From Clostridia bacterium (GTDB lineage Bacteria; Bacillota; Clostridia; Oscillospirales; CAG-272), in NCBI GenBank assembly GCA_017623375.1, contig JAGAPH010000152.1, positions 50,191-114,190 of the forward strand: 64,000 nt of DNA, given 5' to 3'. The position numbers are program-made. Shown piece after piece: positions 9,001 through 12,000 of the stretch; position 1 is the first letter of the stretch, and every line of letters starts with the position of its first letter.

Positions 9001-12000
9001 CCTGTCACCAACCGAAAGTCTGTCGGAGGGGTGAGATATTCTTGATACCGAAATACAGTCGATGGAGAGCAGGGAAACGATACCGCAGCCTATATCAACA
9101 AAAGCGCCAAAGCTGTCAAGATGCGTGACTCTCGCCTCTGCTATATCCCCCGGGATCAGATCGCAAAGATATTGTCCGAGACATTCCTTTTGCGCCTCTC
9201 TTCTGGAGAGGATAGCAACCTCCCTGCCGTCCTCACTCGTAAAGCCCAATACCTTGAAGCATACGGGCTTTCCCACTCGCGTAATGACCGCAATATCCTT
9301 TATATCCTTATTGTCGGGACTGTATACAGCCTCGCTTTTTTCTATAATTCCCGTCATGCCGTAAAGATCTACGTGCAGTCTCATGCGGCTATCGCATAAA
9401 AGGGCAGTGGCTTCAAGTATCTTACCCTCGTTCATTGCGCGTTCAAGTCCCGCTCTTGAGGAAATGTGATCTCTGTTGTCCTTGGTTCCGAATAAAGCCC
9501 CCTCAGGCTTGTAGCAGTTGATCATCTTAAGCTTAAACCTCCGTTATTTACATTGGTATAATCTATGCGAGGGAAAATGAATATATTACGAAGGGTTGTA
9601 AAAAAATTGTGTCGGCAAATTAGCATTTGGGAGCAAAATGGGTGATTTCGGGAGAAAAAACGAGCAAATAAATACCTAAATTAAATTTTTGAAAATTTTT
9701 TCAAAAAAGGTATTGACAATATTGAAAAGGCATGTTATAATATGCGGGTATGAAAAATAAAAACACTAATTTTGGAGGAATTTGACAATGTCAACCTACA
9801 TGGCAAAAGTTGAAACGCTTGAGCGTAAGTGGTATGTAATTGACGCTGCAGGTAAGCCCATGGGTAAGACCGCAGTTGCAGCTGCAAACATTCTTCGCGG
9901 CAAGCATCGCCCCGAGTTCACACCTCACGTAGATTGCGGTGAATTCGTTATTATCATCAACGCAGACAAGGCTGTTCTTACCGGAAAGAAGCTTGAGCAG
10001 AAGTACTACCGCAGACATAGCGGCTACATCGGCGGACTTAAGGAAGTTCAGTACAAGACACTTATGGCAACCAAGCCCGAGCTTGCAATGGAGCTTGCAG
10101 TAAAGGGAATGCTTCCCCATAACTCCATCGGAGCAAAATCCGCAACAAGACTTAAGGTATATGCAGGCGCTGAGCACGCTCACGCTGCGCAGAAGCCTGA
10201 GGCTATCGAGATCAAGTAAGGAGGACGCGCAGAATGTATACAAGCTCTAAGCCTTATTTCTACGGAACAGGCAGAAGAAAGAAATCCGTAGCACGTGTAC
10301 GCATAGTACCCGGCACAGGTGTTATCACCATAAACAAGAAGAGCATTGACGAGTATTTCGGACTTGAGACACTCAAGCTCATCGTTAACCAGCCCTTCGG
10401 CGCAACCGCAACAGAAGGCAAGTTCGATATCATTGCTACAGTAAACGGCGGCGGACTTTCCGGACAGGCAGGCGCTATCCGTCACGGACTCGCAAGAGCC
10501 CTTGTACAGGCAGACGAGAACTATAAGCCCGCCCTCAAGGCAGCAGGCTTCCTGACTCGTGACCCTCGTATGAAGGAAAGAAAGAAGTACGGACTCAAGG
10601 CAGCACGTCGTGCACCTCAGTTCAGCAAGAGATAATTACAGCCCTCGGGCAATTATCTTATATACAAAAAGCTCTGCTGCAGCAGGGCTTTTTGTGTTTT
10701 GGACCGTCGAGGACGCTGGTCCCTACGGGTAAAGGACGGTTCAATTTGTAAAGAACCCCGCCGTCCTATTTACTTTTTAGCAAATTTATGGTATAATTTA
10801 CATTGTTTAGGTATCTAAGCGATAAACTTGAATTTTTGGAGGTAATAAAATGAAGTGTCCAAAATGCGGCAGGGAAATGGAGCTCGGTTATTTTTACGGT
10901 CAAAGAGCACTGTGGAGTAAAAGCGAGGACAAATTTACCATTCTTAAAGGAAAAGACGATCTGAAAATATCCGCCTCGGGTTCGGACGCATACCGTTGCG
11001 AAAATTGTTGTAAGATCATAGTGGTCATTGACTATTAAATTTAATTTGTCTGTAAATTCCCCCGAATAACGGTTGAATTTCCCCACTCAACCGTTGGTGT
11101 GTAGACATTTTCAGTATGGTGAGTTATACTGATAGCGGAAAGGAGGTAAGCAAATGGATCAGATAAAGATCGGAAAATTTATTGCCGAGCGCAGAAGAAA
11201 AAATAATTTGACTCAGATGCAGCTGGCAGAAAGGCTTGGTATTACCGACAGAGCAGTATCAAAATGGGAAACGGGAAGGGCAATGCCCGATTCCTCAATA
11301 ATGCTCGAGTTGTGTGATATTCTCAAAATAACCGTTAATGATTTACTTTGTGGGGAGGTAGTTACAATGGATAATTACAACGAAGAATTGGAAAAGAATT
11401 TGATCGAAACAGTAAAGCAAAAGCAACAGGCAGATAAAAGATTACTGTCTATGGAAATATTTGTCGGTGTGTTATGTGTCGTTATCCTGCTCGCTTTTAC
11501 AGCAGTGGCTTCGTTTGTGCAGATGGAGGAATGGATCAGGATATTGCTTATAGTAGTCGGACTAATTCCGTTTCTGATAGCTTTGCCGTTCATGCTGAAG
11601 ATAGAGCAGACCGCAGGCTATTACCAATGCGCCGAGTGCGGACACCGATATATTCCCAAATACAGCAGCGTATTTTGGGCGACTCATATGGGAAGAACAA
11701 GACGTATGACGTGTCCCAAGTGCGGCAAGAAATCATGGAACAAAAAGGTTTTGACTAAAGAATAAAGCTTTTCGGCTATCCCGTTCAGCGCAAACCTCTG
11801 CGCTGAACGGGATAGCTTTTTCGCTTTGCTATGGCGCAAAATATATTTACTTTTTTTGTATTCTATGGTATAATACATTTGAATGGTAAACTTATGTAAG
11901 GAGCGATACATATGAACAAAAAAGAATTTAAGCTTTACAACGTGATATTTCCTTTTTGGATGCTGATGCTTTTTCCGTGGATGTGGCTTGTGATATTTCC

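Follow-up and report, generated by a model that had tools for sequence, protein, structure and literature searches.

The 64,000-nt stretch of contig JAGAPH010000152.1 from a Clostridia bacterium (assembly GCA_017623375.1), referred to here as the window, contains the ribosomal protein genes rplM (9782-10219) and rpsI (10234-10635), both confirmed by Pfam, and downstream of them an intergenic gap of approximately 215 nt that holds a short unit resembling the repetitive extragenic palindromic (REP) sequences at 10701-10726. The unit begins straight after the T-tract of the rpsI intrinsic terminator (10666-10700, + strand) and ends 42 nt from a promoter-like site (10769-10797, + strand), which belongs to a downstream DUF6487 open reading frame (ORF; 10850-11038); a second hairpin is found in between at 10733-10767. 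An ORF of 172 aa at 7393-7911 (+ strand), 2.8 kb upstream of the unit, encodes a protein like the tyrosine transposases that are associated with REPs (RAYTs, or TnpA-REP) and carries two further copies of the unit in frame.

The unit (GGACCGTCGAGGACGCTGGTCCCTAC) reads GGACCG-TCGAGGACGC-TGGTCC-CTAC on the + strand; the canonical reading is that of the - strand, 5'-GTAG-GGACCA-GCGTCCTCGA-CGGTCC, in which GTAG directly abuts the stem, REPs being recognized by a GTAG or GTGG 0-2 nt 5' of the hairpin. A preliminary description of this DNA reported a match at 23 of 26 positions to the copy at 7681-7706 (GGACAGTCGAGGACGCCTGTCCCTAC), a value reproduced by script comparison; the identity to the reverse complement of 7516-7541 is also 23/26. 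The three mismatches are at unit positions 5, 17 and 18, all within the two loop-proximal pairs of the 6-bp stem as had been described, and the 10-nt loop and the tail CTAC (GTAG on the other strand) are indeed identical. From 7681-7706 to 10701-10726 pair 5:18 changes from A-T to C-G and pair 6:17 from G-C to G-T; the stem of the unit has five Watson-Crick pairs and a G·T pair on the + strand, which becomes an A·C mismatch on the GTAG (-) strand. Pairing inside the loop is possible (T·C, CG/CG and AGGA), which would give a stem-bulge-stem with a basal stem of 6 bp. With up to three mismatches allowed, a degenerate pattern matches the 64 kb at exactly three places, 7516-7541 (-), 7681-7706 (+) and 10701-10726 (+), and matches none of 100 shuffles of the window; these strand signs refer to the CTAC form and are reversed in the GTAG-first reading.

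The spread of the unit is known from two scans, both with the loop and CTAC (GTAG) held fixed; the scan of IMG/VR viral contigs left four stem pairs free, and the scan of species-representative genomes had GGAC fixed. In the viral contigs 85 stretches contain a total of 101 copies; the stem is perfectly Watson-Crick paired in 91, which fall into 11 stem versions (GGGGCG/CGCCCC 32, GGGACG/CGTCCC 17, GGGCCG/CGGCCC 15, GGACAG/CTGTCC 10, GGACCG/CGGTCC 7, and others); three imperfect matches resemble chance matches within an unrelated coding gene. The genome collection holds at least 142 copies in at least 118 stretches of at least 95 assemblies, and all listed matches come from Clostridia metagenome-assembled genomes (MAGs) of animal and human guts; at least seven copies are found in 24 kb sampled from the MAG SIG709, and the genome loci listed do not include the source genome itself. 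The share of copies with a fully paired stem is 90-96% in the two scans. Pair 5:18 is C-G in 72, A-T in 50, G-C in 13 and T-A in two of the genome copies, so that 137 among at least 142 are Watson-Crick at this pair and five are unpaired. Over 27 distinct variants of the 6-bp stem pairing holds in 88% of cells, and double-sided changes (26 in total) occur at three of the four unconstrained stem pairs; this covariation was reached by none of 500 shuffles, and slid controls are 29-60% paired. The preliminary description had read covariation, and thereby selection on the hairpin, from two sequences, which alone are insufficient; the census supplies the evidence, and the stem substitutions respect pairing rather than scatter. 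The palindromic stem is maintained across copies. The flanks are conserved as well, RC before the unit and RR after it (purines at +1 in 98% and at +2 in 80% of copies), which indicates that the real unit is approximately 30 nt. The family is a GTAG-tagged hairpin of 26-30 nt with a covarying 6-bp stem, spread in gut Clostridia (Oscillospiraceae and relatives).

The census also places the unit of the window within the family. GGACCG/CGGTCC is the commonest stem subfamily (72 among at least 142 genome copies), and the window copy is a member of it with one C>T at position 17. The A-T to C-G change had been described as compensatory, but the unit belongs to the GGACCG/CGGTCC subfamily and is not a compensated derivative of the intragenic copy. 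The described change from G-C to G-T holds on the + strand only, the GTAG strand having mismatched A·C at this pair, and is a rare decay mutation; it is absent among the at least 142 genome copies and occurs at one other, unrelated locus in the metagenome scan, so the G·T version is rejected as a propagating subfamily.

The copies are predominantly extragenic: 92 of 111 testable MAG copies (83%) have no open frame across ±150 nt, and RAYT-like ORFs hold six of the 111. The dispersed extragenic family of the preliminary description is thus borne out by both scans, as is its link to the intragenic repeat, whose copies lie in a RAYT-like gene. A relaxed rescan gives 193 units, 96 of which are within 250 nt of another, and 42 of 50 neighboring pairs are inverted; the suggested inverted doublets are therefore a feature of the family elsewhere, but the window copy is a singlet, with no inverted partner in the window even at three mismatches. 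Many doublets pair a unit with one of a different loop, TCGAGGACGC with TCCGGGAGGC or TCCAGGAGGC. A preference for terminators or convergent genes, also suggested, does not emerge: 14 of 91 non-coding units are next to a terminator compared to 61 of 590 control positions, with no clear enrichment by a crude detector, and intergenic sites are convergent in nine cases and divergent in 11. The orientation relative to flanking genes shows no bias (7 vs 11).

Several arrangements of the copies were seen in passing. Common hetero-doublets, which are not perfect REP doublets forming hairpins (REPINs), join the unit to a sister unit GTAGGGACCGGCCTCCCGGACGGTCC (loop TCCGGGAGGC) 19-34 nt away (L216 6872-6948; L086, L106, L147, L090, L128). 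Several MAGs share longer repeats, approximately 100-150 nt in length, with the unit inside them; these look composite and similar to bacterial interspersed mosaic elements (BIMEs) or miniature inverted-repeat transposable elements. In one type the unit is preceded by the hairpin CCCCGACAGAC...GTCTGTCGGGG and followed by TCCTTATGAGAA (L171, L126, L152, L107, L115), and in another it is preceded by GGCAGAGAAAACAACATCTCTGCC (L201, L176, L108, L091, L197). Other REP types of the relatives, namely the VGAIHESP-type GGGCGATTCGTGAATCGCCCCTAC and the loop variant TCCGGGAGGC, are not found in the window.

The family is tied to a RAYT-type HUH/Y1 enzyme, and the kinship of the neighboring gene with RAYTs is evident from profile, PDB sequence and fold matches. 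The best PDB sequence match of the 172-aa protein is E. coli TnpA-REP (4ER8, E 5.4e-8), and NCBIfam NF047646 (REP-associated tyrosine transposase) matches with E 2.7e-18 and 66.2 bits, below the cut-off of 80; Pfam Y1_Tnp scores 16.7 bits, below its gathering score of 23. These scores below the cut-offs are considered to reflect a divergent branch and the REP-encoded insertions that interrupt the match. The HUH motif is H-I-H in PNHIHIML and the tyrosine motif is YIYENP (RYIYENP), both of which align with those of E. coli TnpA-REP; H86, H88, Y152 and P157 are invariant among 39 homologues. The segment IWQSRSNDHIIR aligns with the E. coli GTAG-recognition region IWQPRFWEHAIR, in which W94, Q95, E100, H101 and R104 contact GTAG (PMC6006769); of these five residues the protein retains W, Q, H and R and has D in place of E, a replacement in the GTAG-recognition region that is noted for some subclasses (PMC6006769). 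An AlphaFold model of the protein (mean predicted local distance difference test 75, predicted TM-score 0.71) has 4er8_A as its top Foldseek match (E 5.5e-7, TM 0.57-0.59), above the IS200/IS605 transposases. Judged by sequence and model, ORF 7393-7911 is the candidate cognate RAYT gene of the unit.

The two copies inside this gene bracket its HUH-encoding segment. Site 1 (7516-7541, + strand in the GTAG-first reading) encodes VGTGVLDCP in frame, predicted to be the tip of a β-hairpin in the AlphaFold model; at site 2 (7681-7706, - strand, so that the + strand shows the CTAC form) the encoded peptide is GQSRTPVPT, which is inserted relative to 4ER8 and modeled as a low-confidence loop. Together they form a perfect 29-nt inverted repeat (7514-7542 and 7680-7708), and the 137-nt spacer between them encodes the HUH segment. 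The resident stem version at both sites is GGACAG. No units flank the RAYT-like gene in the window scan; the inverted pair sits inside the ORF. The 172-aa protein has 3585 homologues. In other MAG loci, RAYT homologues have the unit at these two positions too, and within each gene both sites share one version (GGACAG, GGACCG or GGACGG). In the best 120 of the 3585, residues specific to a version agree between the two sites in 113 cases and disagree in one. In all four assemblies with both sampled, the RAYT-internal and extragenic copies have the same stem version.

Some homologues depart from this pattern. Two or three tandem in-frame units are present in homologues at L181, L133 and L162 and in proteins P0027, P0042 and P0046, for example VGTGVLDCP repeated three times; these proteins are 212-229 aa compared to 172 aa here, and the reading frame is intact. 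Paralogous RAYTs (L183 2847-3365; L089 6110-6619) carry the different REP GGGCGATTCGTGAATCGCCCCTAC at the same two protein positions, where it encodes VGAIHESP and RAIRESPLQ; extragenic copies of this REP are found in the flanks of L090 and L166. Between uvrD and an S1-domain gene, related species lack the RAYT gene together with its S51-peptidase neighbor (window 7386-8571 vs L204 1195-1341), so the RAYT gene is part of a 1.1-kb indel and not a clean single-gene insertion.

The history of the site downstream of rpsI was followed in relatives, defined as contigs encoding identical RpsI; these form several species-level groups with 90-92% identity over the rplM-rpsI DNA. Five contigs are identical to the window. 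In L204, L205 and L211-L213 the terminator is followed directly by a promoter; L208 has the terminator and the second hairpin with no REP, and L210 has neither the REP nor the second hairpin. The REP unit is not at this site in the related species L204, L208 and L210, so relative to them it is an indel; insertion in the lineage of the window is the most parsimonious reading, with exact boundaries that cannot be fixed at such divergence. The rpsI terminator is kept in relatives without the REP and is therefore resident, not part of the REP. As a separate observation, approximately 100 nt of the rpsI terminator region and the second hairpin are duplicated in L208 (2119-2230 and 4220-4320), where the duplicates bracket a 2.1-kb insert with a GDSL lipase gene and a 173-aa ORF; the gene content downstream of rpsI is different in every related lineage, which gives the region the look of a hot-spot.

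Taken with the census and the neighboring gene, the unit at 10701-10726 is very probably a REP of a REP/RAYT system, standing alone and somewhat decayed, that acts, if it does so at all, as a hairpin at the level of DNA. If the RAYT works like E. coli TnpA-REP and the IS200/IS605 transposases, it would recognize the folded hairpin and GTAG on single-stranded DNA, and would then cut and rejoin next to the hairpin; such cutting and rejoining could disperse or maintain units in non-essential intergenic DNA. The window copy probably inserted into untranscribed DNA that separates the rpsI terminator from the promoter downstream, and has since gained C>T changes; it is probably neutral. Mobilization of the units by the RAYT through a single-stranded DNA mechanism is thus proposed from the analogous systems. 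In Clostridia this enzyme family is not known to transpose or cleave DNA, and several further points weigh against this explanation. The copy deviates from the consensus at three places, namely position 17 and the flank positions -2 and -1, the conserved 5' RC being missing; the family hairpin has little stability in this copy (about -6 kcal/mol, z -1.2 to -2.3), and the lowest-energy ViennaRNA fold is an alternative hairpin instead of the family stem. Due to these departures and the minimum-energy fold, the window copy may no longer be a substrate. The alternative hairpin itself, in which GGAC of the loop pairs with the 3' GTCC, is rejected as it has no comparative support, unlike the 6-bp stem. 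Since the scans held the loop and CTAC fixed, the presence of GTAG in all copies and the invariance of loop and tail are so by construction. With a 6-bp stem and a 10-nt loop the unit is outside the search rules of Quentin 2018 (PMC6006769), the basal stem being 1 bp short; these rules, which require a basal stem of 7-20 bp with a loop of 2-5 nt or a stem-bulge-stem, are a filter and not a definition. There is only one extragenic copy within the 64 kb of the source genome, and Nunvar 2010 (PMC2817692) gives REPs as usually more than 100 per genome. The stem versions also differ, the extragenic copy being GGACCG-derived and the resident RAYT carrying GGACAG; the two versions are mixed, as in the window, in five of 26 multi-copy assemblies.

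A role of the unit as RNA in the rpsI operon, whether as a back-up terminator, a 3' stabilizer against exonucleases or a read-through regulatory structure as for some E. coli REPs, is considered improbable. On the sense strand the unit comes immediately 3' of the rpsI terminator, a good RNA fold is predicted for the whole of the 165-nt region (z -4.2), and the G·T pairing is preserved only on the + (RNA-sense) strand; however, a strong terminator with a 12-nt T-tract precedes the unit, so most transcripts should stop earlier, and the location between this T-tract and the -35 box makes an RNA role unlikely. The unit is not an intrinsic terminator itself: no T-run follows the stem, where the next bases are GGGTAAAGG, and a terminator scan does not call it. 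Rfam has no match at the gathering threshold in the region, with only a chance mir-578 on the terminator (E 0.17) at a permissive threshold; furthermore, related species do without the unit at this site, and the family is unbiased in its orientation to flanking genes and without clear enrichment next to terminators. A slightly less probable explanation is a DNA site exapted by the host, either a putative binding site of a nucleoid protein or gyrase, like those of E. coli BIMEs, or a hot-spot of recombination behind the variable gene content downstream of rpsI. The differences in gene content between relatives and the duplicated terminator region around the insert of L208 are in its favor, but the variability is seen in relatives that lack the unit (L204, L208 and L210), and the unit is a single decayed copy.

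An origin from the RAYT gene itself, as the leftover of a decayed second RAYT gene or as a gene-conversion patch, is very improbable. The loop and tail are identical to those of the RAYT-internal copies and the match continues for 10 nt more at 81% (36-nt arms); however, the stem version is unlike that of the RAYT copies and equals the commonest extragenic subfamily, and the copies of the family are mostly free-standing in non-coding DNA. The window has no other RAYT-like coding remnant by tblastn, which rules out a decayed RAYT pseudogene at the site, and the gap of approximately 215 nt, shorter in relatives, has no room for a gene. Chance resemblance of a GC-rich hairpin to a coding segment could be suspected from the shortness of the match (26 nt) and the weak hairpin, but it is contradicted by three copies in the window where shuffles give none, and is refuted by the census, with hundreds of copies elsewhere that have identical loop and tail and covarying stems; its probability is close to nil.

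A more far-reaching idea concerns the two in-frame inverted REPs of the RAYT gene, which might constitute the master copy of the family, a REPIN with an HUH-encoding spacer, so that enzyme and substrate co-evolve from one locus; this is considered doubtful. It is suggested by the stem versions changing in concert (113 vs 1), by a different REP at the same sites in paralogues, by the tandem in-frame multiplication, and by the matching versions in all four assemblies. If the RAYT gene is such a master copy, the extragenic copy of the window, given its different stem version, may be a relic of an earlier or another RAYT.

The features around the unit are well delimited. The rpsI terminator consists of an A-tract, a stem GCTCTGC/GCAGGGC with the loop TGCA, and the T-tract TTTTTGTGTTTT; as DNA it folds at -12.7 kcal/mol (z -5.3). 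The second hairpin (A-GGACGG N21 CCGTCC-T, no strand assigned) has arms at 10734-10739 and 10761-10766 and folds at -7.3 kcal/mol (z -2.3); it had been described as unrelated to the unit, which stands as it is present in relatives without the REP, but with a spacer of 20 nt where 21 are found. It ends 2 nt short of the -35 box of the promoter-like site, which is composed of TTTACT, a 17-nt spacer and a TG-extended TATAAT (10/12 match). Homologues of the second hairpin and the promoter recur elsewhere in L208 (where there are two copies) and in L204/L205, all without the REP unit; the hairpin is a separate, older, conserved element that is independent of the REP, and a decayed REPIN partner is ruled out. 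In the window its 3' arm CCGCCGTCC uses CCGTCC to pair with GGACGG, and in L208 and L204 the pairing is between CCGCC and GGCGG; a single G>A moves the register, and a hairpin 2 nt from the -35 box is retained. The promoter-like site also resembles another one in the window, 10767-10797 and 11844-11874 having 81% identity over 31 nt (TATTTACTTTTT...TATGGTATAAT). Elsewhere in the window a perfect 9-bp hairpin followed by CTAC (GGCGCGTAAAAATGCTTACGCGCCCTAC) is found at 3786-3813 inside a 132-aa cytidine-deaminase-like ORF (3751-4149), probably by chance, and a tetrahydrofolate riboswitch (RF01831) is present at 46431-46530 on the + strand (84.5 bits, E 4e-18).

REP/RAYT and REPIN systems are well described (PMC2817692, PMC3116915, PMC5581495), and Group 1 RAYTs have been noted in Clostridia (Bertels et al. 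2017, PMC5581495); in the literature searched no description of this family, of its loop sequence or of REPs in Oscillospiraceae was found. A close likeness is to the E. coli REP/BIME and TnpA-REP system (PDB 4ER8; PMC2817692; PMC6006769), which shares the short extragenic hairpin with GTAG at the foot of the stem and an HUH/Y1 enzyme with Y-x-x-x-N-P and the W-Q...H..R region, the 4ER8 structure being the best sequence and fold match. In contrast to E. coli REPs, the Clostridia unit has a 6-bp stem and a conserved 10-nt loop with a possible inner 2-bp stem and AGGA; the host also differs, the REPs are within the reading frame of the enzyme rather than flanking its gene, and the NCBIfam equivalog cut-off is missed. 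Similar to the REPIN-RAYT system of Pseudomonas (Bertels & Rainey 2011, PMC3116915; RAREFAN preprint 10.1101/2022.05.22.493013), the family often forms inverted doublets with short spacers and has a largely genome-specific stem version that matches the resident RAYT; in contrast to REPINs, the window copy is a singlet and many doublets of the family join units with different loops. The IS200/IS605 subterminal hairpins (IS608, ISDra2) are related through the enzyme fold (Foldseek 2xqc, 2vjv and others) and the presumed recognition of a single-stranded DNA hairpin; here, however, no left and right ends enclose a transposase gene, tnpB is lacking, and the repeats of 26-30 nt are free-standing. 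In-frame REP insertions are known inside subclass 2.4 tnpA-REP genes, mainly of Cyanobacteria and Bacteroidetes (Quentin 2018, PMC6006769); in subclass 2.4 (Group 4 RAYTs; PMC6006769) the gene is likewise undisrupted, and a shared feature is one length-variable site with repeats, located between the HUH strand (β3) and helix αC. The present gene differs in having two fixed inverted sites that bracket the HUH-encoding segment, with stem versions that change in concert.

The finding documents a large covarying REP family in uncultured gut Clostridia and links it to a RAYT branch of more than 3500 mostly 'hypothetical' proteins. What is understood of REP/RAYT systems comes almost entirely from Proteobacteria. 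In gut MAGs the units, in-frame copies included, give rise to spurious ORFs and to breaks in the assembly, and recognizing them improves annotation. The REP/RAYT kind of element is already known; the part worth following is the concerted two-site in-frame arrangement, as the fixed pair of REPs extends the oddity of subclass 2.4 and is a tractable case for understanding how a domesticated HUH enzyme remains matched to its substrate.

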